A stretch of 32,189 nucleotides of DNA from an uncultured Pseudomonadales bacterium (GCA_964534675.1 CAZHQZ010000002.1:1-32189); one strand, 5' to 3'; positions 4,263 to 19,822 are shown, numbered from the stretch's first letter. Notes: generated by a model not told the origin, from the letters alone. Numbers and translations are program-made.

Positions 4263-5605
4263 GCTTTTCTCGTTATCCCGAATACAAAGACAGCGGCGTG
4301 GAATGGCTGGGGGAAGTGCCAGAGCATTGGACTTCTGTTGCCATTAAATACATGGCAACAGACGAAAAATCTATTTTTATTGATGGAGACTGGATTGAAA
4401 GCAAGGATATTTCTGGAAATGAAATAAGATACATAACAACCGGAAATGTTGGTGAAGGAAAATATAAAGAACAAGGATCAGGATATATTTCTAGCGAAAA
4501 GTTTTATGAGTTGAATTGCACCGAAGTATTCCCAGGTGACATTTTAATTTCTAGGCTTAACCCTCCAATCGGAAGATCTTGCCTTGTTCCAGATCTTGAA
4601 AGTCGGATAGTGACATCAGTTGACAATGTTATATTCAGGCCTGATAGCTGTTACTCGCGAGACTATCTTATCTATCTTTTTTCATGCCCGGAATACTTTG
4701 AACATACGGGGAATATAGCTCGCGGTGCAACAATGCAGAGAATCAGCAGGGGTCTGCTTGGAAACATTCGAGTCGTTACGCCGCCAATAGCCGAGCAAAA
4801 CTCTATTGCTGCATTTCTGTATCAAGAAACCGCCAAAATCGACACGCTCATTGCCGAGCAAGAACAACTCATCGCCCTGCTGAAAGAAAAGCGCCAGGCC
4901 GTTATTTCCCATGCCGTGACCAAAGGGCTTGATCCCAACGTCAAGATGAAGGATTCAGGAATTGAGTGGCTGGGGGAAGTGCCGGTGCATTGGGGGGTTC
5001 TGCCACTGAAATACTTTGCCAGCTTTTCAGGCGGCGGCACGCCAAGCAGAGAAAATCTCAGCTACTGGAACGGCGATATCCCTTGGGTATCTCCTAAAGA
5101 CATGAAGAGCGAGAGAATTATTGGCGCCGAGGAATGTATTACGGAAGTTGGCTTATCTAATAGCTCCTCGTCCTTGCTCCCGGCCGATAGAGTTCTAATG
5201 GTGGTGCGATCTGGAATTCTACAGCACACCATTCCTGTAGCTATCAATGATGTTCCTGTGGCCTTGAATCAGGATATGAAAGCCATTTTGTTTAAGGAAG
5301 GAAGTTGTTTAAGTGATTTTTTCTTTCGTTGGGTGCAGGGATTAAATAGTGTGCTTTTGCTGGCTTGGGCAAAGCAAGGCGCTACGGTAGAAAGTATTGA
5401 GCAGGCATATCTTGCCAATACAGTATTCCCACTTCCTCCCATTGAGGAACAAAAAGCGATAATAAAATTTATCAATCAGCAGGTCGATATGTTCGATGAG
5501 CTAACGGCTGAAGCTGTGCGAGGAATTGAATTGCTCAAAGAGCGCCGCAGTGCGCTGATTTCGGCGGCGGTGACGGGGAAAATTGATGTGAGGGGTTCAG
5601 CATGA
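4259..5605 (+). CDS. hsdS: Type I restriction-modification specificity subunit HsdS (two target-recognition domains)
   Basis: An internally duplicated conserved motif precedes each TRD: DSGVEWLGEVPEHW at the N-terminus and DSGIEWLGEVPVHW mid-protein. The central conserved region is LIALLKEKRQAVISHAVTKGL and the C-terminal one is LLKERRSALISAAVTGKIDV. Both are typical HsdS coiled-coil spacers. Confidence 0.9.
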   Translation: MSFSRYPEYKDSGVEWLGEVPEHWTSVAIKYMATDEKSIFIDGDWIESKDISGNEIRYITTGNVGEGKYKEQGSGYISSEKFYELNCTEVFPGDILISRLNPPIGRSCLVPDLESRIVTSVDNVIFRPDSCYSRDYLIYLFSCPEYFEHTGNIARGATMQRISRGLLGNIRVVTPPIAEQNSIAAFLYQETAKIDTLIAEQEQLIALLKEKRQAVISHAVTKGLDPNVKMKDSGIEWLGEVPVHWGVLPLKYFASFSGGGTPSRENLSYWNGDIPWVSPKDMKSERIIGAEECITEVGLSNSSSSLLPADRVLMVVRSGILQHTIPVAINDVPVALNQDMKAILFKEGSCLSDFFFRWVQGLNSVLLLAWAKQGATVESIEQAYLANTVFPLPPIEEQKAIIKFINQQVDMFDELTAEAVRGIELLKERRSALISAAVTGKIDVRGSA

Positions 5606-6423
5606 AGCACACGCTGAGCTTGCTTGAAAATGCGATGGACAGCCTGGCAGAGGCTCTGAAAAAGTATGAGGAAGGCGAGGGTGGAGAAAGCAAGGCATAT
5701 AAATTTGCCGTCCTTCATATGTCCCACTTTGTTGAGTTGATCTTCAAATACCACATATCAAACAAGCATCATCTTCTTATATATAAAAATCCATTCTCAG
5801 AAAAAATTGATAAAAACATAACAATAGGGCTATGGGAGGCAATAAATTTTATTTCTAATGAAGGCGAGTCGGATCTTGGTGCGCAATTTAAATCCGACTT
5901 GCGGTGGCTGAAGAAACTAAGGAATGACATTGAGCATCACAAGTTTGAGATGGATGTGAATGAGGTAAGGGTTTCACTTGGTAGATTGTTTAGTGCGCTT
6001 GTCGAGTTTATAGAGGCAGAGGAGTCGCTTGAAATCAAGAATCATATCCCTGCGGAAACATGGGAAACATTCAAAACATTGTCAGATGAGTACGCGTTCA
6101 AGCTGAAAGACGCTATAAAAGAGGCTGATAGAATTGAGGAAGAGAACACTCCTGCCTATGATTCTGGGGAATACAGAACAATTAGAGTTATCTGTGAGAA
6201 TTGTGGCAACCCGACAATGGTGGTTAATCCTGAATCAGACGGCGGATTCAAATGTACATTTTGCGGCAGTGATGAGGGAGATAATCTTCCCGCTTTCTGC
6301 GATATGTGCGGAGCTGAATCAACAGTCGAAGAAATGGATTATTGGCGCGATGAGGAAACGGGTGGCGTTGAAACCCGCTGTTATTACTGTTCTGGCCGAT
6401 ATTTCATGGAAAAAGATGACTAG
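5602..6423 (+). CDS. Uncharacterised protein: N-terminal helical HEPN-like domain (Rx4H motif) plus C-terminal double zinc ribbon (4 x CxxC)
   Basis: ATGA overlap with the hsdS stop (5602-5605). The LRNDIEHH motif (R107...H112, nt 5920-5937) fits the HEPN Rx4-6H RNase signature and resembles the RNxxxH of HepT/DUF86. Cys pairs at C198/C201, C218/C221, C233/C236 and C260/C263 (nt 6193-6390). I do not recognise a named family. Confidence 0.6.
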   Translation: MKHTLSLLENAMDSLAEALKKYEEGEGGESKAYKFAVLHMSHFVELIFKYHISNKHHLLIYKNPFSEKIDKNITIGLWEAINFISNEGESDLGAQFKSDLRWLKKLRNDIEHHKFEMDVNEVRVSLGRLFSALVEFIEAEESLEIKNHIPAETWETFKTLSDEYAFKLKDAIKEADRIEEENTPAYDSGEYRTIRVICENCGNPTMVVNPESDGGFKCTFCGSDEGDNLPAFCDMCGAESTVEEMDYWRDEETGGVETRCYYCSGRYFMEKDD

Positions 6424-6435
6424 CTTGGGTGCGGC

Positions 6436-8118
6436 ATGAAAGAAACAGAGCTAAAGCAGCACTTGCTGCAAAAATTCCCGAAAGAAAATTCTGCGTGTGA
6501 GTGGAAGGAATTCAAGAGTCTGAAACATTCTGTGTTTGGTAATGCAGGCAACGACATCATTAGCTATATTTCCTCCATTGCTAATATGGAAGGTGGTCAT
6601 CTTGTCATTGGTGTTGAAGATGCAGCCCTGAATATTGTCGGCATACAGGAATTTCACAATCACACACCAGACAATATCCGTCAGCGAATACTGGAGCGAT
6701 GCAGCGCCCTGGATTCCGAAGCTTTTCATGTCCAGCCATTCATAACCGATGACACGCAAAAAACTGTCTGGGTTTTCTATATCCCCAAGCATCGACCCCG
6801 CATGCCGGTGTATGCGCATGACAAGGTTTGGCAGCGCCTTGATGATTCGTTAGTGGAAATGCGCGCTGAACGCTTGAATGCCATTCTTGCAGAGCCTATA
6901 GATAACAGTGACTGGACTGCAGAGATTGTAGAAGGTGCGACATTGGCTGATCTTGATCCGGCGGCTATTGCATTGGCAAGAGAAAAATATTCCGAGAAAT
7001 TCAAGACCGCACCCTATGCTGCTGAAATGGCTGGATGGAGTGACGGCACCTTTCTAGACAAGGCCAAAATTACAATCGGTGGAAAAATCACAAGGACCGC
7101 TTTGCTCTTGCTCGGCAAGGCGGAATCCAGTCACTTCCTGCCAACGCTGGCGCAAATCACCTGGAAGCTGGAAGGTGCTGAACGCGCTTACGAGCATTTT
7201 AGCTTGCCATTCCTGATCGCCACCACACAGGTCTTGCACCGCATCCGCAATCTTGCCTACAAGATTTTTCCTCAAGATCAGCTTCTAGCAACCGAAGTCA
7301 GCAAATACGACACGCGCGTAGTGCTTGAAGCATTACACAACTGTATTGCTCACCAGGACTACACGGTGGGAGCGCGGGTGCTTGTTATCGAGCAAACCGA
7401 CAAGCTGGTGTTTGAGAATATGGGTGGTTTTTATGACGGGAAACCGGAAGATTATTTCAGTGGTGACAGAACACCCGGCCGTTACCGCAATCACTGGTTA
7501 ACGCAGGCGATGGTCAATTTGAACATGATTGATACCGTTGGCGATGGCATTCGCACCATGACTCAATCCCAGCGCAGCCGCTACTTTCCTCTGCCGGATT
7601 ACCAGAAATCAACGCGTGACAAAGTGGTGCTGGAAATTTATGGGCATGTCATGGACGAAAACTACACTCGCTTGTTGCTTGCCCAGCGTGATTTGCCATT
7701 AACCACAGTGATTCTGTTGGACCGGGTGCAGAAAAAACTACCTATCACCGACGAGGCGGCCGCCATGCTCCGCAAGGCTGGCCTGATCGAGGGTAGAAAA
7801 CCCAATTACTACACATCCGCTCAAGTAGCCAAAACAGCAGATAGGCAAGCAGAATATATCCACTATCGGGGCTTCAAGGATTCCTACTATAAAGATAAGG
7901 TTATTGCCTACCTGCAACAGTACGGTTCGGCTGACAGGGCGCGGCTGCGGCAGCTGATTCTAGACATGCTTCCGGCAGTATTAGACGAGAAACAGAAGGC
8001 TAACAAGGTGAGAAACCTGCTTCACGCCATGTCCACAAGGGACAAAACCATAGAAAAATCAAAGGGTTTGCCTGTAGGTCACTGGGGGCTCACACAGTCT
8101 AAACATGAAAATATTTAG
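6436..8118 (+). CDS. AlbA_2 (Schlafen-type divergent AAA) / HATPase_c_4 domain protein, COG2865-like putative nucleic-acid-binding regulator
   Basis: The N-terminus EWKEFKS...IISYISSIANMEGGHLVIGVED...IVGI matches the AlbA_2 pattern (E-x-K...FAN-x-GG-x-L-x-GV-D). The central EALHNCIAHQDY matches the EAL-x-NA-x-HRDY region of the RecG-C-terminal-like ATPase domain. The C-terminal region is wHTH-like. Confidence 0.7.
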   Translation: MKETELKQHLLQKFPKENSACEWKEFKSLKHSVFGNAGNDIISYISSIANMEGGHLVIGVEDAALNIVGIQEFHNHTPDNIRQRILERCSALDSEAFHVQPFITDDTQKTVWVFYIPKHRPRMPVYAHDKVWQRLDDSLVEMRAERLNAILAEPIDNSDWTAEIVEGATLADLDPAAIALAREKYSEKFKTAPYAAEMAGWSDGTFLDKAKITIGGKITRTALLLLGKAESSHFLPTLAQITWKLEGAERAYEHFSLPFLIATTQVLHRIRNLAYKIFPQDQLLATEVSKYDTRVVLEALHNCIAHQDYTVGARVLVIEQTDKLVFENMGGFYDGKPEDYFSGDRTPGRYRNHWLTQAMVNLNMIDTVGDGIRTMTQSQRSRYFPLPDYQKSTRDKVVLEIYGHVMDENYTRLLLAQRDLPLTTVILLDRVQKKLPITDEAAAMLRKAGLIEGRKPNYYTSAQVAKTADRQAEYIHYRGFKDSYYKDKVIAYLQQYGSADRARLRQLILDMLPAVLDEKQKANKVRNLLHAMSTRDKTIEKSKGLPVGHWGLTQSKHENI

Positions 8119-8182
8119 ATGGCTTTAGACGAATTTAGACAATGGTTGATAACCAGCCAGAGGCTTACCACATGGATTTACG

Positions 8183-11100
8183 ATGACCCTCCACCTCGAA
8201 ATCAAGTTTGAAGACGACATCTGCAACCACCTCGCAGCCAATGGCTGGCTGTATGCGGAGAAGGATGCCCAGCACTACGATCGCACACGGGCACTCTATC
8301 CTGCCGATGTGATTGCCTGGGTGCAGGCTGCCCAGCCACAGGCTTGGGAAACCCTGAATAAGAATCACGGTGCCAATGCGGAAAACACATTGCTTGATCG
8401 CCTGCGCAAGCAGCTGGATGATCGCGGCACGCTGGATGTGTTGCGCAACGGTATTGAGTTGCTGGGCCTCAAGCAGCCGCTGGCGCTCACCCAGTTCAAA
8501 CCGGCATTGGCCATGAACCCGGACTTGCAGGCACGCTACGCCGCCAACCGCTTGCGTGTGGTGCGACAGGTTCGCTATTCCCTGCACAACGAGAATTCGA
8601 TTGATCTGGTGTTGTTTCTGAACGGCATTCCCGTTGCCACCGTGGAACTGAAAAGCGATTTCACGCAGAGCGTGGAAGATGCGGTGGATCAGTACCGTTT
8701 CGACCGTCACCCCAAACCCAAGGGCCAGCATGCTGCCGAGCCGCTGCTGGACTTTCCGCGCGGGGCGCTCGTGCATTTTGCGGTGAGCAATTCCGAAGCG
8801 CGCATGACCACACGCCTGGCTGGCCCTGCTACCTTCTTCCTGCCGTTCAACCTGGGTGATCACGGCGCTGCCGGTAACCCGGTGAACCCCAACGGCCACA
8901 AGACGGCGTATCTCTGGGAAAGCGTTTGGGCGCGTGATTCCTGGCTGGAAATTATCGGGCGTTATCTCGTGACGAAACGGGATGACAAGAAGCAGATCAC
9001 TTCGATTATTTTTCCGCGCTACCACCAGCTGGATGCCACTCGCCAACTCACAGCGGCAGTACTGGCAGAGGGGCCGGGCCAGAAATACCTGATCCAGCAT
9101 TCGGCAGGCTCTGGCAAAACCAACTCCATCGCCTGGACTGCGCACTTTCTGGCCGATCTACACGACGCTGCCCAGAAAAAGCTGTTTGATTCGGTGTTGG
9201 TGGTGAGTGACCGCACCGTGCTGGATGCACAGTTGCAGGAAGCCATCTTCGATTTCCAGCGCACTACTGGCGTAGTCGCTACCATCAAGGGTGAGGCGCA
9301 AAGCAAGAGCGGCGAATTGGCAGAGGCGCTATCCGGTAACAAGAAAATCATTGTGTGCACCATCCAGACCTTCCCGGCCATTTACAAAAAAATGAGTGAG
9401 ATGGCTTCCAACGAAGGGAAGCGTTTCGCGGTTATTGCCGATGAGGCGCACAGCTCGCAAACCGGCAGCGCTGCCGCCAAGCTGAAACAGGTGCTTTCTG
9501 CAGAAGAAATGCAGGAACTGGAAGACGGTGGCGAATTTAGCGCAGAAGACATGCTGGCGGCACAAATGGCTGCACGGGCGAATGACGCTGGTATCACCTA
9601 CATAGCCTTCACTGCCACCCCCAAGGCCAAGACAATGGAGTTGTTTGGCCGTTTGCCAGACTCGACCAAGCCTGCCGATGAAGGCAATCTCCCCGCGCCG
9701 TTCCATGTGTACTCCATGCGGCAGGCTATCGAGGAGGGTTTCATTCTCGATGTGCTGAAGAACTACACCTCGTACAAACTCGCTTTCAAGCTGGCCAGCG
9801 GTGGCAAGGAGTGGAACGAGAAAGAAGTGGAAAAGAGCGCTGCCATGAAGGGCATCATGCGCTGGGTGCGCCTGCATCCGTACAACATCAGCCAGAAAGT
9901 GCAGGTGGTGGTTGAGCACTTCCGCGAGAATGTGGCACCACTGCTGGGCGGCCGTGCCAAGGCGATGGTCGTGGTGGGCAGTCGCCTAGAAGCCGTGCGC
10001 TGGCAGATCGCCATCAACCAGTACATCAAGTCTTCTGGGTACAAAATAGGCACACTGGTGGCGTTTTCTGGCGAGGTAAACGACAAGGAATCTGGTGACG
10101 AGCCGCTCACGGAAAACAGCAAGCTGTTGAACCCGAACCTGAAAGGTCGCGACATGCGCGAAGCGTTCAAGACCGAGGAATACCAGATTCTGCTCGTTGC
10201 CAACAAATTCCAAACCGGGTTTGACCAGCCATTGTTGTGTGGCATGTATGTGGATAAGCGATTGGGAGGCATCCAGGCCGTGCAGACACTTTCACGCCTG
10301 AACCGCGCCCATCCTGGCAAAGACACCACCTACATTCTCGATTTCGTCAACGAACCAGCCGACATCCTCGCTGCCTTCAAAACCTACTACGAGACCGCCG
10401 AACTGGAGGGGGTGACTGATCCCAATCTGGTATTTGATTTGCGCTCACAGCTCGATGCGGAGGGCCATTACGACGATAACGACATCACGCGTGTCATCAA
10501 GGCCGAGTTCAACCCGAAACCCACTCAATATGAACTCAGTGCCGCCATCGCGCCGGTCGCTGATCGTCTGCTCAAACGCTACAAGGCTGCCAAGATGGAT
10601 TTGGAAGCAGCTCAGGCCAAGGGCGACAAGAACGCCGAACAGGAGGCCGCCAACGCCATCGGTGCTCTGGTTCTGTTCAAGCGTAACATCGGTGTGTTTC
10701 TGCGCGTGTACAGCTTCCTGTCGCAGATCTTTGATTACGGCAATACCGACATCGAGAAGCGCGACATTTGCTACAAACGGTTACTACCGCTGCTGGAGTT
10801 TGGCCGTGAGCGAGATGGTGTTGATCTGTCAAAAGTGACCCTCACCCACCACAAACTGAAAGACAAAGGTATCCAGACCTTGTCATTGAAAGATGGTGAC
10901 AAGCCGACATTGCCGCCAATGGAGGGCGTTGGTAGTGCCGAGGTGCGGGAGCCGGAGAAAATCCTGCTCAATGAAATCATTGCCAAGGTGAATGACCTGT
11001 TCGAGGGCGAGCTCACCGACGACGACAAACTGGTTTATGTGAATAGCGTGCTGAAAGGCAAATTGATGGAATCAGAGGTTCTGAAGCAGCAGGCGCAGAA

Positions 11101-11314
11101 CAACACCAAGGAACAGTTTTCCAATTCGCCGGATCTGGCTGCCGAAATCATGAACGCCATTATGGATGCTCTGCAGGCTCACACGGCCATGAGCAAGCAG
11201 GCCTTGGATTCCGAGAAGGTGCGTGGCGGTCTGAAAGACATTCTTCTGGGGCCTGGGCAGTTGTATGAAATGCTGAAAGATGGGGGTGCCAATACGGTTC
11301 GGCCAGCACTTTGA
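8183..11314 (+). CDS. hsdR: Type I restriction endonuclease subunit HsdR (SF2 helicase/translocase plus nuclease)
   Basis: 1043 aa. The N-terminal HSDR_N-like region has EDDICNHLAANGWLY and DLVLFLNGIPVATVELK (PD-(D/E)xK). Helicase motif I QHSAGSGKTNS, motif II VIADEAHSSQTG, motif III FTATPK, and KFQTGFDQPLL late in the helicase region. Confidence 0.92.
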   Translation: MTLHLEIKFEDDICNHLAANGWLYAEKDAQHYDRTRALYPADVIAWVQAAQPQAWETLNKNHGANAENTLLDRLRKQLDDRGTLDVLRNGIELLGLKQPLALTQFKPALAMNPDLQARYAANRLRVVRQVRYSLHNENSIDLVLFLNGIPVATVELKSDFTQSVEDAVDQYRFDRHPKPKGQHAAEPLLDFPRGALVHFAVSNSEARMTTRLAGPATFFLPFNLGDHGAAGNPVNPNGHKTAYLWESVWARDSWLEIIGRYLVTKRDDKKQITSIIFPRYHQLDATRQLTAAVLAEGPGQKYLIQHSAGSGKTNSIAWTAHFLADLHDAAQKKLFDSVLVVSDRTVLDAQLQEAIFDFQRTTGVVATIKGEAQSKSGELAEALSGNKKIIVCTIQTFPAIYKKMSEMASNEGKRFAVIADEAHSSQTGSAAAKLKQVLSAEEMQELEDGGEFSAEDMLAAQMAARANDAGITYIAFTATPKAKTMELFGRLPDSTKPADEGNLPAPFHVYSMRQAIEEGFILDVLKNYTSYKLAFKLASGGKEWNEKEVEKSAAMKGIMRWVRLHPYNISQKVQVVVEHFRENVAPLLGGRAKAMVVVGSRLEAVRWQIAINQYIKSSGYKIGTLVAFSGEVNDKESGDEPLTENSKLLNPNLKGRDMREAFKTEEYQILLVANKFQTGFDQPLLCGMYVDKRLGGIQAVQTLSRLNRAHPGKDTTYILDFVNEPADILAAFKTYYETAELEGVTDPNLVFDLRSQLDAEGHYDDNDITRVIKAEFNPKPTQYELSAAIAPVADRLLKRYKAAKMDLEAAQAKGDKNAEQEAANAIGALVLFKRNIGVFLRVYSFLSQIFDYGNTDIEKRDICYKRLLPLLEFGRERDGVDLSKVTLTHHKLKDKGIQTLSLKDGDKPTLPPMEGVGSAEVREPEKILLNEIIAKVNDLFEGELTDDDKLVYVNSVLKGKLMESEVLKQQAQNNTKEQFSNSPDLAAEIMNAIMDALQAHTAMSKQALDSEKVRGGLKDILLGPGQLYEMLKDGGANTVRPAL

Positions 11315-11388: not shown

Positions 11389-12378
11389 ATGGTAGAGGCA
11401 TTATTCAGTGGGTGGCTTATGAACGACAAACTCGACTTCTCCGGCATTACCGATACTACCGCCAGTGAATACTTGAAAATTGGTGAAATGCTGATTCGAA
11501 ATTTTATGGCATCTGATAATAAAAAAACGATGGAGTCTTATGCCAACTGGATTGCGAATACATACATCAATAAATGTGCCGCCAACACATGGAGAAAGTA
11601 CCGCAGAGCTGCTATTTATCATGTCTATATAAAAAAGCCTGAAACTGCAGAGTTTTTACAAAAAATCCTGCTCGATAAAAAACCTGAAGAACGAGTTCGT
11701 GCCAAGCGCCGTAAAAGTAGGAAGAGCTACAGGGAGCAGGATTTCGCGAAACTTTTGCAATATTTGCAACAAAAGGCTGCGGGTAAGCGGTGCAGTTATT
11801 GGTGGCGTCAGGCTGCGGTGACTTTGCAAGCCAACAGTATTGTTGGCTTGAGGCCAAGTGAGTGGATGACCGCTTTTTCACAAGTAATTAATAATGAGAT
11901 TGTTCTGCGGGTCATCAATGCCAAAAACACGCATAACCGGTCGCACGGTTTTTCAAGAACACTGCATATTCCGATTTCAAAAGATAATGATGTGCATGTA
12001 ATTGAAACAAAAATCATCATGACTGGAGATGCTATTCTCAACAAGAGAGCCAAGTCATTTGAGGCCTACGGGGCTACGGTTGCTTCGTATTTATTGCGCG
12101 CCAACAACGCTGTGTTTGGTAAGGATAAGCCGACAATTGCGATTTACTCTACTCGGCATCAGTGTGCTGCCAATTTCAAAGCGGCTGGGCACACAAAAAA
12201 TGAAGTGGCGGCAGTCATGGGGCATGCCTCCAACAAAACAGCGGGCAGGCATTACGGCAGGAAAAGTAGGGGCAGGCGCGTGGCTAACTTGCCTACGCCA
12301 TCGCTTGATGACATGAGTAGGGTTGCTGCGATAAATAATTCGGTGGCCGCATCCGTATCGTTTTCTCTTGGGATGTAG
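11389..12378 (+). CDS. Tyrosine recombinase / phage-type integrase family protein
   Basis: The C-terminal catalytic-domain pattern is GLRPSEW (Arg I), YSTRHQCAANF (Arg II region), and VMGHASNKTAGRHYGR (His...Tyr nucleophile). The start is uncertain: ATG at 11389 or ATG at 11419 (MNDKLDF). Confidence 0.7.
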   Translation: MVEALFSGWLMNDKLDFSGITDTTASEYLKIGEMLIRNFMASDNKKTMESYANWIANTYINKCAANTWRKYRRAAIYHVYIKKPETAEFLQKILLDKKPEERVRAKRRKSRKSYREQDFAKLLQYLQQKAAGKRCSYWWRQAAVTLQANSIVGLRPSEWMTAFSQVINNEIVLRVINAKNTHNRSHGFSRTLHIPISKDNDVHVIETKIIMTGDAILNKRAKSFEAYGATVASYLLRANNAVFGKDKPTIAIYSTRHQCAANFKAAGHTKNEVAAVMGHASNKTAGRHYGRKSRGRRVANLPTPSLDDMSRVAAINNSVAASVSFSLGM

Positions 12379-12391
12379 TCTGGAATTCATC

Positions 12392-12408
12392 GAGGGTAGA
12401 TTACCCTC
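12392..12408. terminator. Hairpin between the convergent integrase and glycosyltransferase genes
   Basis: GAGGGTA-gat-TACCCTC, a 7-bp perfect stem that overlaps the glycosyltransferase stop codon. There is no clear U-tract on either strand, so function as a terminator is uncertain. Confidence 0.3.
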
Positions 12409-14485
12409 CTGATCTTGCCCCAGTTTCTCGGATGGTTGGCAAAAAACCATAGAATGCGTGGTAGAGACTTTTCTTGTTTAAATAGTCGTCTAGACAAGTA
12501 AACTCTTGCTCCAAATCCTTTCTCAAATACCCTGGGATTACCAACAAGTCTACTTCTTGACAGATATCAATACGCCCATTTAATGAGGTTGAAATACCAT
12601 CCCACGTATTCATCTCCCCCTCAATAAAGCATTGCAACATCTTTTTTGGCGAAGCAGGCTCATAAGAAGTTTTTCCACGGCAGAAAATATCGGTAATGAC
12701 ATAAGGTCCATGCGTAAGTGCTGCTTCCTTACCTCTTCTATGCATGCTCTGTACCACAACCTCCCCTAATAATTCTGGTTGCCTAGTAATGATAAGATGG
12801 TAAATAGAGTAATGGACGTGATATTCATTCAAGAAACTTATTTGACCCAAGCCGTATTCTTTAAATGGCGGATAATCCCTATAGTCTTTGTCGGATGTTT
12901 TCCACTCCCAGTACTTGTCGATTTCACAATTAAAAATCCGAAGAATATTAGACTTTTGTTTTGCGTACAAAATGCCTAATTCAATACCATCTTTTGCTTC
13001 TTCAAAATAATTATGTCCTTCCTCATCCTTACGAGTAAATGTTACGTTTGTATGGCCAGCCAATGAAGCACCTGCTGAGCAAATAAGTTTCTTGTATAAG
13101 GACACGTCTTCAAAATCATGCCTGAGAAAAATAGTACTCGTATCTAGATAAACGCCACCATATTTTTCTAAAAGTCTAAGCCTAATAATGTCACTATGAT
13201 TTCCATTCTGAACACTAGGATCGCTAGCCTTCTCTATTAGTTGATGAAAGTATGGTGGGAGGGATATGTAGTTTTCAATATAATCAGGCGCGCGCTTGTC
13301 TAACGTAGTAACGATAACAATCCAATCACTGTTGCTTAGCCTAGTCTCTAAATTTCTTATGTTTAAGGCATGACCGATAGGCATGTCCTCTTTAGAGGAG
13401 TGCCAGTACAAGAAAACCACTTTTTTATTTTTCAATCTATCACTGTTCTTAATTCGGTTTAACGCATAATCGACATCTGCGTTTTCGAATTGATTCATAT
13501 CCTTAATGCCTCCAAAGTCAACCAGGCATTTGCTCTGAACAACTTCAAAGTTTCGACTTGTTGTTGGTTGCCAAATATTAAAATACTTAGTCTCAGGGTA
13601 GATAGCGACAACACCTTTATTTAGCACCTTAGAAACATGGACAAGAGATGTGTCTACTGAGATCAATAGTCCTGATTTGCGAATGATCGGAATAACACTT
13701 TCAAAATTTGTTATTCCTTTTGCCAAATCAACATTAGGTAAACTCAAGTCGTCAACCAACTGTGAGGCTGGCAGTAAAGAATTAGGAGAGTGCATAACGC
13801 CAAAGCTACTATCGCGATGAGACGTCGCTAGGTGCCTTATAAGAGACTTGGTTTTTTCGATAGCAAGAGACTTATCATTACGACTCCCGTAAGGGTTGAT
13901 AAGAAAATCATAACTTTTGGAAAAACAGTCGTTCTCTACACAAAGTGAAGCTCCAATCAAATTGTTGTTCCCGCTGACTACCATATCGACAACCGACTGG
14001 TAGATTCCGTAGATATCATTGTGTTTCGACTTATCTATGAATGCCTTGCTTGACATCTTTAAGGTGCTATCTGTGCTAAAAATAACTCGAGGGTTCAAGA
14101 GAAACGCACACAAAACATCCATAACCCCAAGCTTGCCAAAGAGTGGGACAACTGCATCACACCTTTTTACATTGAATGTGATCTTAACTAGATCAAGCCA
14201 TCCAAAATTCTTCTCAATTACGTGAATAGAGTCTACTTGTATCAGCGAACAATAGAGCGTACGCAGTGGTTCGTTGGTAATCACGCTAACTCTTATGCCG
14301 CAGCGAGAGGTTAGGAATTCGATGATGGGGGCTGAAGCGATAGCGTCACCGTACTTACCATTCCAGTTAACGAAAACAACATGCCTGACATTGCTGTCTT
14401 TTTTCGCAAGCCGCTTTTTGAATACAAATAACCAATCAAGAAGCCGTATCAGGAGCTCACTAAGCGCAGGCAATAAGGTCATCAT
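12401..14485 (-). CDS. Two-domain glycosyltransferase: N-terminal GT9 (heptosyltransferase-like) fused to a C-terminal Caps_synth/GT32-like domain
   Basis: In the N-terminal half, HVVFVNWNGKYGDAIASAPIIEFL and LLISVDTSLVHVSKVLNKGVVAIY parallel the GT9 motifs (..LGD....P....L and ..DSG..HLA.A...P.VALF). In the C-terminal half, VVFLYWHS...SDIIRLRLLEKYGGVYLDTSTIFL matches the capsular-polysaccharide-synthesis family motif (SD..R..LL.kyGG.w.DaT). The gene is markedly AT-rich. Confidence 0.6.
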   Translation of the reverse strand: MMTLLPALSELLIRLLDWLFVFKKRLAKKDSNVRHVVFVNWNGKYGDAIASAPIIEFLTSRCGIRVSVITNEPLRTLYCSLIQVDSIHVIEKNFGWLDLVKITFNVKRCDAVVPLFGKLGVMDVLCAFLLNPRVIFSTDSTLKMSSKAFIDKSKHNDIYGIYQSVVDMVVSGNNNLIGASLCVENDCFSKSYDFLINPYGSRNDKSLAIEKTKSLIRHLATSHRDSSFGVMHSPNSLLPASQLVDDLSLPNVDLAKGITNFESVIPIIRKSGLLISVDTSLVHVSKVLNKGVVAIYPETKYFNIWQPTTSRNFEVVQSKCLVDFGGIKDMNQFENADVDYALNRIKNSDRLKNKKVVFLYWHSSKEDMPIGHALNIRNLETRLSNSDWIVIVTTLDKRAPDYIENYISLPPYFHQLIEKASDPSVQNGNHSDIIRLRLLEKYGGVYLDTSTIFLRHDFEDVSLYKKLICSAGASLAGHTNVTFTRKDEEGHNYFEEAKDGIELGILYAKQKSNILRIFNCEIDKYWEWKTSDKDYRDYPPFKEYGLGQISFLNEYHVHYSIYHLIITRQPELLGEVVVQSMHRRGKEAALTHGPYVITDIFCRGKTSYEPASPKKMLQCFIEGEMNTWDGISTSLNGRIDICQEVDLLVIPGYLRKDLEQEFTCLDDYLNKKSLYHAFYGFLPTIRETGARSGG
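12409..12443 (-). mobile_element. Possible degenerate relic of an IS3-family right terminal repeat
   Basis: CTGATCTTGCC (12409-12419) is identical to the first 11 nt of the IS terminus at 18418 and 24260. Farther in, TTTCTCG matches the same position in the reverse-complemented end at 167. Roughly two thirds identity over ~35 nt by eye. It lies inside the last codons of the glycosyltransferase ORF. Confidence 0.3.
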
Positions 14486-14830
14486 TTAGAGCTAGTCACG
14501 GTTATTTGGATGTTTTTTCTGGCCGATAAGTGGACGCCTGCGGGTAGCTGTCCAGCCCCGGACGATTAATTACGTGTCTATTGAATAATGCGAGCTTGTG
14601 TCGCTGCCACTTCTTGATTATAAAAAATCAACCACCTGCAGAGTCGTCTGGCAATGTTTGTCTATGCCGTGTGAATTTGTCAGGAGATTACCTATAACAA
14701 AATCTCGCATACCGTGGCAAGTTTCATGATGAGATGATAAATATGATCATGCGGAGCTAGACACCGTCTTTGGCTCGGATCGCCTATAGTCGGCAAGAAG
14801 GATATAAATGCGTTCTCGACAGAGGTTCTG

Positions 14831-15295
14831 TTGGACAGTCTTCACGAGTTGTTAACCACAATGCCCGAAGCTGAGCGAATCCATTCGCTTAAAGCACGGA
14901 TAGTTCCCGGCCTAGGCGTGGCGCAGGGAACTCTCGCTCGCCAGTTGCCACTGATCAGCCAAGGCTTCCCCGAGGTCGTAGACTGTTACCCTGGGACCAT
15001 AAATATGGAGCTCGAATGTCCTCTCGAAGTGACGCAGCCCGATCATCGCACTCCTCCGCTTGCCTGGACTCCGAGCGGACGAACGACTGAAGTATTCGAC
15101 CTAGTGCGTATTGAGCTTGAGTTCGGCTCACTACCAACGCGCGTGCCGGCATGGTTGTACGTTGCCCACTTATCTCCTCACCGTGACACCCCGACCGTTC
15201 ATGAGGTGATAACTCAGCAGTTAAACCTGAGTGATGCCAGTGAGTGCCAAATTCATCTGCGCGCAAGTGCAGTAACACTGACATCCACACATTAA
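14831..15295 (+). CDS. DUF120-like protein (fold of the archaeal CTP-dependent riboflavin kinase)
   Basis: ARIVPGLGVAQGTLARQLPLISQGFPEVVDCYPGTINMELE parallels the RibK/DUF120 pattern G-x-V-x-SG-x-G-x-G...PY-x-GTLN-x-x-L. The C-terminal AWLYVAHLSPHRDTPTVHEVITQQLNLSDASECQIHL parallels ...H...-x-EIIA...L...L-x-DGD-x-V. The TTG start at 14831 follows AGAGG; the ATG at 14861 is the alternative. Confidence 0.45.
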   Translation: MDSLHELLTTMPEAERIHSLKARIVPGLGVAQGTLARQLPLISQGFPEVVDCYPGTINMELECPLEVTQPDHRTPPLAWTPSGRTTEVFDLVRIELEFGSLPTRVPAWLYVAHLSPHRDTPTVHEVITQQLNLSDASECQIHLRASAVTLTSTH

Positions 15296-15319
15296 CAAAC
15301 GAAGCTTCAAGGCTGCTAC

Positions 15320-16444
15320 TCACGGGTGAATCACCCTGCCATTGGTGCTTAACAACTCGGCATTTGTCAGGTACTCCCTCAGCAACACCAAGGAAGGCGC
15401 ACATTGCGGCTGACTTAGAAACTCGTTACCCAATGCAGACTTGTAAAGACGCAGCCAAGTCGGCGCAGGCACCTTCGGCAGGAATGCGGCGAGAGACTCT
15501 CGGTTTCCCTCCCCGAACAACAGGCGCAGGGTGCGCAGGATTGGTTGGTAGTCCCGTGCAGACAACAGCTCCGCAACGGTATCATCCAGCCGCTGCTCGA
15601 TCGCCACGCTATTCAGTCGATCCTCGACTGAGGCGTCGCCCAGCGCCACCCGGGGGTCGATCGCTACTGGATAGATTGCGCGGAACGACTTTGCACCGTT
15701 ACGCATGGATTCATAAAGCACTTTGTCGGCAGTAGATCCGGTAACCAACACATCGTCGCCGAAGATCACATGCACACCGCTCCATCGGTAGAAATTCTCA
15801 GCCGGAATGACATGATCTTGGAGCAGATTGACATGCTCGCGCTCGTCGGTGCTGAGGCTAGCGTAGTTCTCGCAGGGCGGTGCAATCCTGGGTAGCTTGA
15901 CGTTGATGATGGTCGGCAACGCCATATGCGCCAGTTTGACGTTGACTTCCTCGACCACGAACTCATAGAGCACGTTCGCCGTGGACGGCACGTTGCGCCA
16001 ACCAGTGGTCATCATCACCACGTTGTCACCACAGACCTTGGCGTTCTGGAACAGGTATGACCATTGCGAGTCTGGCCTATCCAGCTCGCCACAGAGGTAG
16101 TCGATCAGTTGCCTTGCGAGATACCGGATGTCATGCACACCGCCGTATTTTGCACGGCTGTAGATCCCAGCCAGTGCTGTGGCATCGCTGCCCGTGGCCA
16201 TGTCGCGGAACACCCCCGACTCGGCAGGTGTAAGGCAGTGCAGGGCGGTACCGCCAAAAATCGAAACATACTCGGTCATGCTGATCAGGTCACACGCAAA
16301 TAGCTCGGCAGCGAACGCGCGGAATCCAGTTTTCACATCATTCGCACGAGGTTGAGCGGCAGCCTGACGAAACATCGCCAACTGGACATCAACCGGGCTT
16401 TTAAGTACATCGGACCATAGCGGAGAATTTGTGGGGCAAATCAT
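15320..16444 (-). CDS. Phosphoribosyltransferase-fold protein with large unassigned N- and C-terminal extensions
   Basis: The type I PRTase PRPP-binding loop VHVIFGDDVLVTGSTADK (residues ~225-241, nt 15734-15772) is a hydrophobic run followed by DD-x-x-x-TG-x-T. The other ~220 N-terminal and ~130 C-terminal residues are not recognisable to me. The start lies 2 nt after the PHP gene stop. Confidence 0.6.
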   Translation of the reverse strand: MICPTNSPLWSDVLKSPVDVQLAMFRQAAAQPRANDVKTGFRAFAAELFACDLISMTEYVSIFGGTALHCLTPAESGVFRDMATGSDATALAGIYSRAKYGGVHDIRYLARQLIDYLCGELDRPDSQWSYLFQNAKVCGDNVVMMTTGWRNVPSTANVLYEFVVEEVNVKLAHMALPTIINVKLPRIAPPCENYASLSTDEREHVNLLQDHVIPAENFYRWSGVHVIFGDDVLVTGSTADKVLYESMRNGAKSFRAIYPVAIDPRVALGDASVEDRLNSVAIEQRLDDTVAELLSARDYQPILRTLRLLFGEGNRESLAAFLPKVPAPTWLRLYKSALGNEFLSQPQCAPSLVLLREYLTNAELLSTNGRVIHP

Positions 16445-16446
16445 GT

Positions 16447-17313
16447 TTAAGGCAGTTCAAGTCCTGCTGTTAAAGTTGCAGGTGTGTCCGGTAACGTTAG
16501 GCTGTCGAGGGAGACATCGATTCGTCGGCGCCTCTCGTAGTAACTAATGCTCTTCAGACCCAAAGGCCTCAGGGCCTCAAGCAGTTCAGCGACGCCCGCA
16601 CCAGCGTCGCTCGGGTCATGGGTGTCAGACCCAACCGTGAAAGGCACCTCGTGTGAGATAAGCTGTGCCACCAATTCCCGAGACGGATAAGACCAAAAGC
16701 CTTGGACCTCCCTGCCCGTTGTTGGGTCCAGGCTCGACTTTCGAAGACCTGAGGCATTGAGCTCGAATGCAATACCGCTTCTGGCGAGCTGCGCTAGCAA
16801 TGGTTCGAAACGGCGCAGGAAAATATCTTCCGGCACGCCACGCAGCAAGGTGTCAGCGTGCCCTACAGCATCAAACAATCCACTGTCTAGCAGATCTTCG
16901 AGATTGGCGAAGTAGCGATCTAGAAACGCCTGCCCGGCAAGGCGTGGCAGTTCCCAGACTCTCACCATCGCTTCATCTGGAACTTCCACGTAATGAATCG
17001 AGCCGATAACAAAGTCCATCGGGTAACGAGCAAGCAGCTCGCGATTGAAGACGTCGGTGCCAGGCATGTAGTCGAACTCCAGACCACACAGGATGGTGAT
17101 CTGTCCCTGATAAATCTCCTGAGCCCGCTCGATGTCAGCGAAATAGCGATCAAGTTCCGACGCGAGCAAACGATTATCCATATCCACGGGGAACGGCGCG
17201 TGGTCGGTGATGGTTAGGATGGTCACACCGGCGGCGATCGAGGCGCGAACCAATTCATCGACGGTACCGGTTGCATGCTTCGAATAAGAGGTGTGGCTGT
17301 GTGAGTCGATCAT
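16447..17313 (-). CDS. PHP-family phosphoesterase (histidinol-phosphatase HisJ/HisK-like)
   Basis: The N-terminal MIDSHSHTSYSKHA...ITDHAP carries the PHP metal-binding His motifs. GSIHYV, VGHAD and GSDTHDP occur farther on. I chose the ATG at 17313 because it forms an ATGA overlap with the radical-SAM stop; the ORF track starts at 17325. Confidence 0.8.
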   Translation of the reverse strand: MIDSHSHTSYSKHATGTVDELVRASIAAGVTILTITDHAPFPVDMDNRLLASELDRYFADIERAQEIYQGQITILCGLEFDYMPGTDVFNRELLARYPMDFVIGSIHYVEVPDEAMVRVWELPRLAGQAFLDRYFANLEDLLDSGLFDAVGHADTLLRGVPEDIFLRRFEPLLAQLARSGIAFELNASGLRKSSLDPTTGREVQGFWSYPSRELVAQLISHEVPFTVGSDTHDPSDAGAGVAELLEALRPLGLKSISYYERRRRIDVSLDSLTLPDTPATLTAGLELP

Positions 17314-18338
17314 GCAGCCTCCCACTGTTCGATCAACCCGGCATGACCAGCCAGATTCTTCACCAGCCAGTAGGGGTTGTTCGTCTTGGCGATGATCGAA
17401 CGAAGCAGGTCGGTGTTTTCAAGGCGCGCGAGTAACTCTGTTAGGGGTTGCGTATAGAGAGCTCGGGCCAGAGGTGTTTCCAACACATGTGCAACTAGCA
17501 GTTCCCAATCGACTCGGTCAAAGTGAATGTTTCCTAGGCGCTGATTCTCGATGCCATACAGGTATATGTCGCCGCTAGGCTTCACCGTGACATCCAAACC
17601 GTTGGCCTGCGGCGGCTTATTCAGGTTGCCGAAGGTGAAAGGTTTGTTGACCTTGGACTCGATCGCCTCAATGTAGCCGAGCATATCCAGATAACCGGGG
17701 GCGGTTCCTGGAGTTGGGTGAACGAGGTTCTTGTAGTCGATGCTGAAGCTCTCGCCGCCCGTGACCAGTATATCTTCCAGCACGCTCCGCGGCTCGATGG
17801 CTGCCTCAAGCCCCCAGGAGACCAGTTCGGACTTTAGGTACTCGCGGGTGAAATCGCGGTCGGTATCGATTGAGCGAAACGAGAAACTCAGCCCAGACGG
17901 TCGCCGACGACGCAGGAAGTCCAAGCTGAAACCATGGGCACGCCATTTGACCTTCTCGATATGATGGCTGTCTGCACTGAGGCGGATGTTGCAGGTGTCG
18001 CCATTGGCCAAGACAATCCGGTTTGTCGTGTCATAGAACTCCTCCATCTTGTCATGTGGGTAGAACCCACTGGTGATGAATTCGAAGCGCTTGCCACCTT
18101 TGGATAACCCGAGAATTTCGTGGAACACTTTGGCGTTGTTGAGTGGCTCGCCTTCACCACTGATGGAGATACGCTTGACCTCCGAAGCATTGATCAACCT
18201 AGCGAGGTTTTCCCGCGCCAACATTGATAGCTCCATACTAATTCCCGCTTGGTGCTTGTCGGCGTACATACAGAAGGCGCAGCCGATGCCACATATTTGC
18301 GTAATGTCGATATATAGGAGATGTCCCTGAAGATGCAT
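17310..18338 (-). CDS. Radical SAM enzyme of unassigned subfamily
   Basis: CGIGCAFC gives the CX3CX2C cluster at C16/C20/C23 (nt 18270-18293). The SAM-binding GGE-like motif is ISGEGEPL. 342 aa with no additional Cys clusters (no SPASM/twitch-like region). It does not look like a viperin to me, as I recall viperins having a CNYKCGFC-type motif. Confidence 0.8.
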   Translation of the reverse strand: MHLQGHLLYIDITQICGIGCAFCMYADKHQAGISMELSMLARENLARLINASEVKRISISGEGEPLNNAKVFHEILGLSKGGKRFEFITSGFYPHDKMEEFYDTTNRIVLANGDTCNIRLSADSHHIEKVKWRAHGFSLDFLRRRRPSGLSFSFRSIDTDRDFTREYLKSELVSWGLEAAIEPRSVLEDILVTGGESFSIDYKNLVHPTPGTAPGYLDMLGYIEAIESKVNKPFTFGNLNKPPQANGLDVTVKPSGDIYLYGIENQRLGNIHFDRVDWELLVAHVLETPLARALYTQPLTELLARLENTDLLRSIIAKTNNPYWLVKNLAGHAGLIEQWEAA

Positions 18339-18417: not shown

Positions 18418-18646
18418 CTGATCTTGCCAGCATTTTTCGTACAGTCTGCTAAGAGACTTTTTGTGCCTCAAACGCTTCTGGGCTGAGATAGCCCGGCGAC
18501 GAATGCAGGCGTTGTGATTGTAGTAGATGTTGATACTCAAACACCGCTGCCATGGCTTTGCGTGGCGTTGTTTTTTTCACTGTCTCGTTTGCTTTCTTCA
18601 TGGTGTCACCTTTGTTAAGTCTAGGCTTAACAGCGTGTCCATGTCA
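18418..18646 (-). mobile_element. Internally deleted (MITE-like) IS3-family element
   Basis: Read on the minus strand, the left end is TGACATGGACACGC... (from 18646). An orfA-like start MKKANETVKKTTPRK (ATG at 18601) is fused directly to an orfB C-terminus AMAAVFEY..QRLHSSPGYLSPEAFEAQKVS* (stop at 18449-18451). The right end is ...GGCAAGATCAG at 18418. The orfB remnant carries small indels relative to the copy at 3-137. Confidence 0.75.
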
Positions 18647-18801: not shown

Positions 18802-19335
18802 TTAAGAAGGTTTTGGTGCTAGATCTTCATCAAACTTTTTCATTCTGACTTTATCCCAGTCGATTCCTCTGTTTGCAGCTAACATGGGATCTCTGCCTAA
18901 ACTGAATAACAGTTTTGGTGAAACCCATGATTTCCTTTCGATTGTCTCTGCGACGAGCAACTCTAGCATGCTTAGCATTTTCTCAGATGTGTAAAAGCTT
19001 CTACGAAAATACAAATCTATGTGCAGCATTGGTGACTCATGAACCACTAACCTAATGAGCCAGGGTTCTGGTCTCTTCAATGTAAACTCACCGGTTTTTA
19101 GTGCTTGGGTGATATTGAACGCGCAGGTGGTTTTCCATCCGCCGTTTCGGAGATGGTAGTAAATAATTTTTTTAGCCTGAGCCGCTATTAAATACAGATG
19201 ATAGGTGGAGTGGTCTTTTTCCTTTTTTGTGGCGTTGTTTTCCAGTATGCACAGCGACAGATCTCGGCAAATTTTGTACTTTGATATATCAATCACAATG
19301 CCCATAAAAAAATTCTGCATGATGGTTTTATGCAT
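18802..19335 (-). CDS. Hypothetical protein (orphan, AT-rich)
   Basis: 177-codon ORF with no competing ORF. AT-rich composition like the other horizontally acquired segments. I recognise no motif. The start is ambiguous (M1, M6 or M11). Confidence 0.45.
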   Translation of the reverse strand: MHKTIMQNFFMGIVIDISKYKICRDLSLCILENNATKKEKDHSTYHLYLIAAQAKKIIYYHLRNGGWKTTCAFNITQALKTGEFTLKRPEPWLIRLVVHESPMLHIDLYFRRSFYTSEKMLSMLELLVAETIERKSWVSPKLLFSLGRDPMLAANRGIDWDKVRMKKFDEDLAPKPS

Positions 19336-19549
19336 AACATCTCACAGAATAATTGTTGGTATTAAATCAAGGAATTGTGGGTTTTTTAGACTTTCCTCAG
19401 GCTGCTCGAATGCTGCGCGGCGTAGTCCAATGATAGGTTTTGTAAAAAGGGGGGGCAGAAGAATGTTAGTTTCAAGCGTGTTATCGGAGTTTTCTCTACC
19501 ACTTAATTGGTGATCTAAAGCCTAAAATTGTCGGGTGATGCGATAGCAG

Positions 19550-19605
19550 GCACCCGACAGGAGGCACCCGACAGGAGGCGCTCGACAGAAAGCACCTGAC
19601 AGGAG
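19550..19605. repeat. Four tandem copies of a 14-bp unit (GCACCCGACAGGAG)
   Basis: Units at 19550-19563 and 19564-19577 are identical. 19578-19591 reads GCGCTCGACAGAAA and 19592-19605 reads GCACCTGACAGGAG. An inverted partial copy TGTCGGGTG lies at 19529-19537. Confidence 0.85.
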
Positions 19606-19702
19606 GCCTCTCCATATACGGATAACAAGCAATGCCGGTGTATGACACCGCTAAATTGTTGGTGCAATGTTGGTGCGGGAGAGGGAGGTTGGGCAACAGG
19701 CC

Positions 19703-19745: not shown

Positions 19746-19822
19746 TGGCGCGCCCGGAGAGATTCGAACTCCCGACCACCTGGTTCGTAGCCAGGTACTC
19801 TATCCAGCTGAGCTACGGGCGC
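19746..19822 (-). tRNA. tRNA-Arg (anticodon ACG)
   Basis: The reverse complement is GCGCCCGTAGCTCAGCTGGATAGAGTACCTGGCTACGAACCAGGTGGTCGGGAGTTCGAATCTCTCCGGGCGCGCCA. It has a 7-bp acceptor stem, a D-loop AGCTCAGCTGGATAGAG, an anticodon loop CT-ACG-AA, a T-loop GTTCGAATC and an encoded CCA. Confidence 0.95.

Follow-up and report, generated by a model that had tools for sequence, protein, structure and literature searches.

Jumbo phages that form a nucleus evade DNA-targeting immunity, and Ophion is one of the very few systems known to stop them. Ophion was described in a September 2025 preprint as a three-gene system of Pseudomonas aeruginosa, with the proteins named OpnA, OpnB and OpnC in the preprint and OphA-C in its supplementary tables (bioRxiv 10.1101/2025.09.30.679545). 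According to this preprint, Ophion lowers the plating of the jumbo phages phiKZ and phiPa36 on P. aeruginosa PAO1 by at least 10^6-fold and arrests infection past the early-infection vesicle stage and ahead of the phage nucleus, in a non-abortive manner with no host killing or toxicity. Residues E64 of OpnA (mutant E64A) and K98 of OpnC (K98A) are required, E79 of OpnB (E79A) is required in part, and Juk was co-localised with Ophion in 108 of 110 P. aeruginosa cases (98%). A modified nucleoside or nucleotide as the product was put forward by the Ophion authors as a proposal only (bioRxiv 10.1101/2025.09.30.679545). A 2026 review on jumbo phages and a survey of the P. aeruginosa defensome already cite the system. 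In this study, a three-gene operon at positions 15320-18338 was analysed in a 32,189-nucleotide stretch of DNA (hereafter the window, meaning the whole stretch) from an uncultured Pseudomonadales bacterium (GCA_964534675.1 CAZHQZ010000002.1:1-32189). This operon is an orthologue of Ophion and consists of opnA, encoding a radical S-adenosylmethionine (radical-SAM) enzyme, opnB, encoding a PHP phosphatase, and opnC, encoding a phosphoribosyltransferase (PRTase).

Prokaryotic viperins (pVip) make ddhNTP (3'-deoxy-3',4'-didehydronucleoside triphosphate) chain terminators. Like Ophion, they place a radical-SAM enzyme in a phage-defence context, with inhibited phage transcription as a proposed outcome, whereas Ophion also needs a PRTase and has a PHP phosphatase, and viperin hidden Markov models (HMMs) match only the generic core of its radical-SAM protein. 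PRTase-fold proteins in phage defence are known from ShosTA, PsyrTA and type III retron effectors, which the preprint assigns to the clade of OpnC (bioRxiv 10.1101/2025.09.30.679545); these are toxin-type abortive effectors working by themselves or together with an antitoxin or retron, whereas Ophion is reported to be non-abortive and needs its radical-SAM partner. The PRTases of Ter clusters (PF15610/PF15609) also appear to fall in OpnC's clade, and they combine a PRTase with a phosphatase and have a link to immunity; a nucleotide-type product has been proposed for them, as cited in PMC5512222, and Ter has been linked to phage and plasmid immunity (PMC5512222). Ter clusters differ from Ophion in having a HAD rather than a PHP phosphatase, no radical-SAM enzyme, TerC, TerD and vWA partners and several tandem PRTase domains. 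Furthermore, ribosylation by a PRTase and a phosphatase is known from CriT/CrpP in the Haemophilus influenzae type b capsule polymerase Bcs3 and from the gPRT-PRP enzymes, in whose pathways auxiliary epimerases diversify the pentofuranose (PMC10299916, PMC11127046). Their logic is the one proposed below for Ophion, with ribose-5-phosphate taken from phosphoribosyl pyrophosphate (PRPP), the 5-phosphate removed and glycosyltransferases acting next; they differ from Ophion in their HAD phosphatase, their surface-glycan acceptors and the lack of a radical-SAM enzyme.

The preprint surfaced in a full-text literature search on the combination of radical-SAM, PHP and PRTase domains, and the proteins of its Supplementary Table S1 served as reference sequences (bioRxiv 10.1101/2025.09.30.679545). 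BLASTP against these proteins gave full-length, ungapped alignments with 304/342 identical residues (89%) for OpnA and OphA, 262/288 (91%) for OpnB and OphB and 332/374 (89%) for OpnC and OphC. The gene set, gene order and coupling are those of P. aeruginosa Ophion, the locus likewise lies in a defence island, and the essential residues are kept: E64 of OpnA is conserved and invariant within GEGEPL, E79 of OpnB is conserved within GLEFD, and K99 of OpnC, invariant within SRAKYG, corresponds to the published K98 as judged from the mutagenic primer sequence. The same trio was located on a P. aeruginosa chromosome (locus L001), directly downstream of genes matching the PADLOC JukA/JukB models. 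Because of the full-length identities of 89%, 91% and 89%, the trio is not an unnamed system; it is already known under a name and with a published phenotype, and protection by the window copy is predicted from this similarity. The original prediction, made from the DNA of the window by a model, had found that the operon fits no named defence system, a statement that no longer holds; PADLOC v2 (2023) predates Ophion and contains no model for the Ophion proteins or for the g4 and GT9 proteins described below, returning only a weak N-terminal pVip match on OpnA. Its guess of a conflict-related, nucleotide-centred operon was right in kind, the conflict-related part agreeing with the defence island and with the protection of PAO1 against jumbo phages by orthologues, but the system had already been named.

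The window copy differs from P. aeruginosa Ophion in its host, which is not P. aeruginosa, in having no adjacent Juk, and in its glycosyltransferase genes, of which g4 and GT9 are present only as relics and a Vibrio-type fused gene stands instead. It shows that the occurrence of Ophion is not restricted to Pseudomonas and that Juk, its customary companion, can be missing. The new finding is that glycosyltransferase genes are nearly always part of Ophion operons and that the window copy appears to have swapped in a foreign one.

The three genes and their products

The operon comprises the following genes (aa, amino acids).
17310..18338, minus strand: opnA, radical-SAM enzyme, 342 aa (open reading frame (ORF), Pfam, identity to OphA, AlphaFold2 model)
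16447..17313, minus strand: opnB, PHP phosphoesterase of the HisJ family, 288 aa (ORF, Pfam, TIGR01856, identity to OphB)
15320..16444, minus strand: opnC, PRTase-fold protein, by similarity of the PF15610 (ComF-like) clade, 374 aa (ORF, identity to OphC, AlphaFold2 model, Foldseek)

The three coupled minus-strand genes that had been noticed were recovered as ORFs, and both junctions were read directly in the sequence. At 17313-17310 the end of opnA and the start of opnB share ATGA (GAG GCT GCA TGA / ATG ATC GAC), and TAA-AC-ATG leaves a 2-nt gap between opnB and opnC. The PHP ORF extends over 16447-17325 (minus strand) if started at GTG, and its real start is the ATG at 17313, shared with the published OphB. 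The G+C content is 0.54-0.56 for the trio versus 0.40 for the adjacent 694-aa gene, in agreement with the difference in composition from an AT-rich neighbour pointed out before. A promoter and terminator scan returned fewer sites than shuffled sequence.

OpnA harbours the cluster motif C16-x3-C20-x2-C23 (CGIGCAFC), with all three cysteines invariant, and the SAM motif S60-GEGEPL. It has no auxiliary cluster, as the original prediction had stated. It contains four cysteines in all, and the fourth, C116, is invariant in 25 homologues and may be regarded as a candidate hydrogen-atom donor. The protein matched Radical_SAM (PF04055) with 32.2 bits against a cut-off of 29.5. Its AlphaFold2 model (pLDDT 86.7) found its best PDB fold match, over the full length, in the Bacillus subtilis radical-SAM peptide epimerase EpeE/YydG (PDB 8ai1-8ai6; TM-score 0.58-0.66, E 1e-8), and the runner-up family, anSME, followed far behind with a TM-score of 0.46. 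Judged from this model, the fold of OpnA is closest to the EpeE/YydG epimerase rather than to viperin. No viperin occurred among the top 50 PDB fold matches, the viperin model NF038283 scored 15 bits against a cut-off of 180 and covered residues 12-99 only, and the PADLOC pVip match (E 2e-4) was confined to the N-terminal generic radical-SAM core; the analogy with viperin drawn earlier is thus supported by neither fold nor HMM. On the other hand, the YydG/EpeE family HMM (TIGR04078) reached 17 bits against a cut-off of 300, a PDB profile search with the OpnA alignment returned no sequence-level relatives, and no conserved peptide-substrate gene was found near Ophion. The pair OxsB/OxsA (oxetanocin), a further suggested analogue, was rejected, as Pfam and family HMMs detected neither a cobalamin (B12)-binding radical-SAM domain nor an HD phosphohydrolase domain in any of the three proteins.

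OpnB matched the Pfam PHP family (PF02811; 84.9 bits, cut-off 26.4) and the HisJ-family model TIGR01856 (124.3 bits, cut-off 90.2), and stayed below the HisJ equivalog cut-offs of NF005996 (83.4 versus 133) and NF005596 (170 versus 202). It aligned end to end with the histidinol phosphatase of Thermus thermophilus (PDB 2yxo; E 4.6e-31), and its ligands H5, H7, D37/H38, E79, H107, H152, D230 and H232 align with those of 2yxo, which bears out the full set of His/Asp metal motifs claimed for it. The match to PolX (E 5e-13) was limited to the N-terminal part. Because OpnB passes the HisJ-family model and aligns end to end with 2yxo, it looks like a PHP protein of the small-molecule phosphomonoesterase type rather than a PolX-type nuclease.

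In OpnC, the clean PRPP-binding loop that had been recognised is VIFGDDVLVTGST at residues 226-238, in which D230, D231, T235, G236 and T238 are invariant in 28 sequences. The AlphaFold2 model (pLDDT 88.6) matched, over the core only, HGPRTs (Foldseek probability 1.0, TM-score to target 0.4-0.49) and Helicobacter pylori ComF as the top PDB structures; Foldseek returned no fold or sequence match to gPRT-PRP enzymes above HGPRT or ComF, and against viral structures it found only generic PRTases. A PDB profile search with the OpnC alignment gave no sequence-level relatives. Against the PF15610 cut-off of 28.7 bits, close OpnC homologues scored 24.9-25 bits and a Vibrio-type OpnC scored 29.9 bits, and phmmer related OpnC (E ~1e-78) to proteins carrying PF15610 twice or three times in tandem; relatives of this kind occur in Ter clusters, next to a HAD hydrolase, TerC, TerD and vWA-TerF. 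By these similarities, OpnC appears to belong to a PF15610 clade shared with the Ter-cluster PRTases. Relatives of 600-950 aa were considered as radical-SAM-PHP-PRTase "Rosetta stone" fusions, an idea that was rejected since these proteins hold two or three copies of the PRTase_3 domain in tandem. Among the wider relatives, one locus (L053, 4389-8218) carries an array of three adjacent PRTase_3 genes, and two others (L054/L055, 5600-14529) encode, within Ter clusters that also hold a HAD hydrolase, TerC, two TerD and vWA-TerF, proteins in which PRTase_3 occurs two or three times in tandem.

The OpnC family is small and well conserved; it comprised 243 clusters at 90% identity in a word-indexed search, and when 1.84 billion proteins were searched exhaustively, 149 representative clusters at 50% identity were obtained. 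Scanning a single genome for each species of the Genome Taxonomy Database (GTDB) yielded 41 OpnC loci, in Pseudomonas, Stutzerimonas, Halomonas, Marinobacter, Yersinia, Pectobacterium, Mixta, Psychrobacter and Acinetobacter and in the further genera Comamonas, Variovorax, Acidovorax, Paraburkholderia and Ideonella. OpnA and OpnB were collinear with OpnC in 36 of the 37 species-level loci with enough upstream sequence, so that the co-conservation called for by the original prediction was found. The exception (L011) has a transposase gene directly upstream of opnC in place of opnA and opnB, and it was set aside as uninformative about an OpnC that lacks its partners. Ophion was also present on three large Enterobacterales plasmids, adjoining a JukA-like gene and AbpAB. 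A megablast search of Escherichia coli genomes with the operon gave no match, and no OpnC relative was found among the viral contigs of IMG/VR. As a separate observation, the Citrobacter freundii plasmid NZ_CP056645.1 (116851-131939) bears a full five-gene cassette of the trio, g4 and GT9, flanked on one side by a WYL gene, a JukA-like gene ("ubiquinol-cytochrome C chaperone family") and a membrane protein gene and on the other by AbpA and a DEAD-box helicase; in RefSeq, its OpnB is named "histidinol-phosphatase" and its OpnC "hypothetical protein".

Glycosyltransferase genes of Ophion loci

Downstream of opnC, the P. aeruginosa locus carries g4, a 266-aa gene with weak matches to Caps_synth and Gly_transf_sug (DXD), and then a convergent 509-aa gene of the GT9 family. 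Among 34 species-level loci with at least 2.4 kb of downstream sequence, 26 carried both g4 and GT9, one carried g4 only, one carried a fused equivalent and six carried none, which gives a glycosyltransferase in 28/34. The in-frame start of g4 overlaps the stop of opnC by 4 nt in 19 of 25 loci. Moreover, divergence of these genes followed that of OpnC (Spearman 0.75 for g4 and 0.90 for GT9, with 0.49 for OpnA as a comparison). A third architecture, GT9-rSAM-PHP-PRTase_3-Caps_synth (rSAM, radical-SAM) on one strand, surrounds a 39%-identical OpnC relative (L051). Thus, g4 and GT9 are co-inherited with the trio as one block, and at least three gene architectures combine the trio with one GT9-like and one DXD/Caps_synth-like glycosyltransferase domain. 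These glycosyltransferases are unmentioned in the main text of the preprint and in the parts of its supplement that were available (bioRxiv 10.1101/2025.09.30.679545).

In the window, the corresponding region contains the following features.
15292..15319, minus strand: 3' remnant of g4, the usual fourth gene, 266 aa and DXD/Caps_synth-like (sequence reading, comparison with L006)
14792..15301, plus strand: C-terminal remnant of the convergent 509-aa GT9 gene, residues ~329-498, 81% identical (tblastn, alignment)
12401..14485, minus strand: fused glycosyltransferase of the Vibrio-type fourth-gene family, 694 aa, G+C content 0.40 (Pfam)

All but the last codons of g4 are deleted in the window, and the Oryzomicrobium locus L006 keeps the last ~28 codons. 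The 154-aa ORF at 14831-15295, which had been described as a "DUF120-like" neighbour of the operon, lies within the GT9 remnant. With 15 homologues it matched no Pfam family at E<=10, and a PDB profile search gave nothing relevant; the label of a DUF120 protein or CTP-dependent riboflavin kinase was therefore rejected, and the genes linked to the trio are glycosyltransferases. The dN/dS of the remnant is 0.36 against the L006 copy, and intact copies show 0.13-0.23. No Pfam or PDB match exists for the ~170-residue domain at the C-terminus of the 509-aa GT9 proteins, and its invariant residues C52, H72, H113, H117, H124, C139 and H142 suggest a metal site. The open frame of this domain is kept in the window, in L006 and in L010, though the upstream GT9 domain is lost.

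The 694-aa protein combines both glycosyltransferase types. Its N-terminal half is homologous, at 28% identity (E 2e-31), to the GT9 domain found in the 509-aa protein, and its C-terminal half is a Caps_synth/Gly_transf_sug DXD domain sharing the motif of g4. The fused family numbers 38 clusters among 5.8 billion proteins, and in all six outside loci inspected (five proteins looked up) it is the fourth gene directly after rSAM-PHP-PRTase_3; the contexts were those of V. parahaemolyticus, S. algae, P. damselae and two metagenomic contigs. The window copy is 84% identical to the V. parahaemolyticus protein, but the trios of the window and of Vibrio are only 50%, 43% and 34% identical. By this comparison the window appears to be a chimera of a Pseudomonas-type trio, decayed Pseudomonas-type glycosyltransferase genes and a recombined Vibrio-type fused glycosyltransferase.

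A ribosyl compound as the proposed product

By analogy with the gPRT-PRP pathways, we infer that OpnC and OpnB form a pair for phosphoribosyl transfer and dephosphorylation. OpnC, through its intact PRPP loop, would transfer 5-phosphoribose from PRPP to a base-like or hydroxyl acceptor, and OpnB, as a HisJ-type phosphomonoesterase, would take off the phosphate. OpnA would then abstract a hydrogen atom by its radical-SAM chemistry and remodel the ribosyl unit by epimerisation or dehydration, with C116 as the candidate donor, and the resulting ribosyl compound would interfere with early phage gene expression, a suggestion also made by the Ophion authors. The glycosyltransferases would probably extend, mask or transfer the product; the cloned trio shows its phiKZ phenotype without them. 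As most genomes have the trio in translational coupling with a DXD glycosyltransferase and alongside a GT9-like one, the natural product of Ophion or its target is probably glycosylated. We consider it very probable that the window holds an Ophion orthologue whose PRTase, phosphatase and radical-SAM enzyme make a ribosyl compound and whose glycosyltransferase has been swapped. A more specific version is put forward tentatively, as a possibility with the odds against it: in its native form, Ophion may consist of four or five components that make up a glyco-pathway of ribosylation, pentofuranose remodelling and GT9-like and DXD glycosylation or transfer, with an exchangeable glycosyltransferase module and a glycosylated nucleoside-like or pentofuranosyl antiviral as its product. 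If this product is also the substrate of the glycosyltransferases, Ophion would represent a biosynthetic route to a new glycosylated antiviral metabolite. The phosphomonoesterase-type PHP protein, the PRTase of a Ter-type "nucleoside-like metabolite" clade, the epimerase-like radical-SAM fold and the co-inherited, translationally coupled glycosyltransferases offer comparative handles on the mechanism.

Several points weigh against this interpretation. Window OpnC itself has no PF15610 match at E<=0.1 and no Pfam match above cut-off, and ComF-type PRTases may bind nucleic acid and not catalyse transfer. The likeness of OpnA to EpeE is at the level of the fold only, at 15-16% identity, and the auxiliary cluster of EpeE is missing in OpnA. 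The six loci lacking glycosyltransferases (those of Psychrobacter, Acinetobacter and two others among them) show that these genes do not always accompany the trio. The Ophion span of ~3.0 kb in Table S2 equals three genes, with no glycosyltransferase in the defending construct (bioRxiv 10.1101/2025.09.30.679545); since this three-gene construct defends, glycosyltransferases are unneeded for the phiKZ phenotype. The JukA/JukB-type genes of the P. aeruginosa locus had no tblastn match anywhere in the window, with Juk being typical of Ophion and not defining it. Finally, it is in orthologues that protection, the point of arrest and the requirement for the OpnA and OpnC residues were demonstrated, and the activity and product of the window copy are predictions from its sequence.

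Four other explanations are less consistent with the HisJ-type PHP protein, the invariant PRPP loop, the post-entry non-abortive phenotype and the defence-island or plasmid context. The trio might belong to a surface-glycan pathway in which PRPP-dependent pentofuranosylation of the lipopolysaccharide (LPS) core or capsule, likened to the gPRT/phosphatase ribofuranosyltransferases or to the decaprenyl-phospho-arabinose route, would make phage resistance a by-product of an altered surface. The co-inheritance of GT9 (the LPS heptosyltransferase family) and Caps_synth domains speaks for such a pathway, and a PRTase and phosphatase with auxiliary epimerases is a known route that adds pentofuranoses to glycans (PMC10299916, PMC11127046). 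However, the trio alone blocks infection after DNA entry, with vesicles forming and nuclei not, and no surface block is reported (bioRxiv 10.1101/2025.09.30.679545); flippase, polymerase and export genes were found in no locus examined, and the loci occupy defence islands or plasmids, with Juk, AbpAB, Wadjet and BREX-type genes as neighbours, and do not form part of clusters for LPS or capsule. We therefore consider this pathway unlikely. A shade less probable again is a direct attack on nucleic acid with no small molecule, in which OpnC would bind phage single-stranded DNA or RNA like ComFC, OpnB would be a PHP nuclease like that of PolX proofreading and OpnA would carry out a modification. 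The top fold matches of OpnC include H. pylori ComF, PF15610 carries the name "ComF-like", and the preprint likens OpnB to the PolX and Ppl PHP domains (bioRxiv 10.1101/2025.09.30.679545). These points are countered by the placement of OpnB in the HisJ phosphomonoesterase clade, with its far stronger match to 2yxo than to the N-terminal part of PolX (E 4.6e-31 versus 5e-13), by the invariance of the PRPP loop across the OpnC family, and by the closest non-Ophion relatives of OpnC, which pair with HAD phosphatases in metabolite-type Ter clusters.

A PRTase that drains PRPP or purines as for ShosT, and so arrests the infected cell with the other two proteins as accessories, would agree with the PRTase effectors of ShosTA, PsyrTA and type III retrons in the clade of OpnC; yet the preprint reports neither host toxicity nor abortive infection (bioRxiv 10.1101/2025.09.30.679545), all three enzymes are co-conserved and catalytic residues of the radical-SAM enzyme are required, which leaves such a metabolic toxin very unlikely. 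Housekeeping histidine or nucleotide metabolism in a "histidinol-phosphatase" operon, to which the RefSeq name of an OpnB orthologue and the HisJ-family HMM match would point, is effectively refuted by the score of OpnB under the HisJ equivalog cut-off (83 versus 133 bits), by the patchy, island- or plasmid-borne distribution across Gamma- and Betaproteobacteria, by the defence genes flanking the locus and by the published phage phenotype. A ribosyl compound made by the three enzymes thus stays the preferred interpretation of the operon.

The island around the operon

The remaining features of the window are as follows.
470-1948: ThsA (SIR2 + STALD/SLOG; PADLOC E 4e-205)
1954-2562: ThsB (TIR; PADLOC E 8e-85)
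Upstream slot of HsdS: AAA_14/DUF4143 gene, PDC-S01-type (PADLOC)
4241-5605: HsdS, type I restriction
5602-6423: PDC-S64-type gene, between HsdS and HsdR
6436-8118: Schlafen/AlbA_2 gene, between HsdS and HsdR
8183-11314: HsdR, type I restriction
11389-12378, plus strand: 329-aa ORF with a weak Phage_integrase match (E 1e-4, below cut-off)
18449-18601, minus strand: 50-aa ORF ending ...RLHSSPGYLSPEAFEAQKVS, resembling an IS3-type transposase C-terminus by eye, with no tool support
18802-19335, minus strand: 177-aa AT-rich ORF with no family match, between tRNA-Arg and opnA
19746..19822, minus strand: tRNA-Arg(ACG), core/island boundary (ARAGORN, Rfam)

The accessory, conflict-related setting of the operon agrees with the original prediction, which had placed it in one island with Thoeris and a type I restriction-modification locus. 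ThsA and ThsB form a complete type I Thoeris pair at 470-2562, and the type I restriction locus spans 2814-11314, with HsdS and HsdR found and no ORF for HsdM anywhere in the window. Beyond the tRNA-Arg lie housekeeping-type genes (GroEL, M18 peptidase, SDR). An insertion sequence (IS) relic had also been proposed near 18418-18600; Pfam returned no match for this region, BLASTP showed no resemblance to the IS in the P. aeruginosa locus and tblastn against plasmids found nothing, so that the relic is not upheld.

A few minor observations were made on the island and its relatives. Vibrio-/Shewanella-type Ophion was preceded in three loci (L047, 1-5048; L049, 1-4890; L057, 1-2839) by a conserved four-gene set that is absent from the window and encodes a PIN_4 protein (700-800 aa), a 375-381-aa protein, an AAA_2/AAA_5 ATPase (PADLOC PDC-M37B/DolB-like) and a small radical-SAM protein. 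The latter has 193-195 aa, a Fer4_12 match and a pVip HMM match (E 9e-10), and the set may be a second radical-SAM-containing defence module. HsdR and the fused glycosyltransferase flank the 329-aa integrase-like ORF, which is ~7 kb away from the tRNA and may mark a junction of two island modules. At the island edge, a 14-nt unit, AGGCACCCGACAGG, is repeated in ~4.3 tandem copies at 19541-19607, ~140 nt from the 3' end of the tRNA-Arg, and this repeat may be a candidate recombination or binding site.

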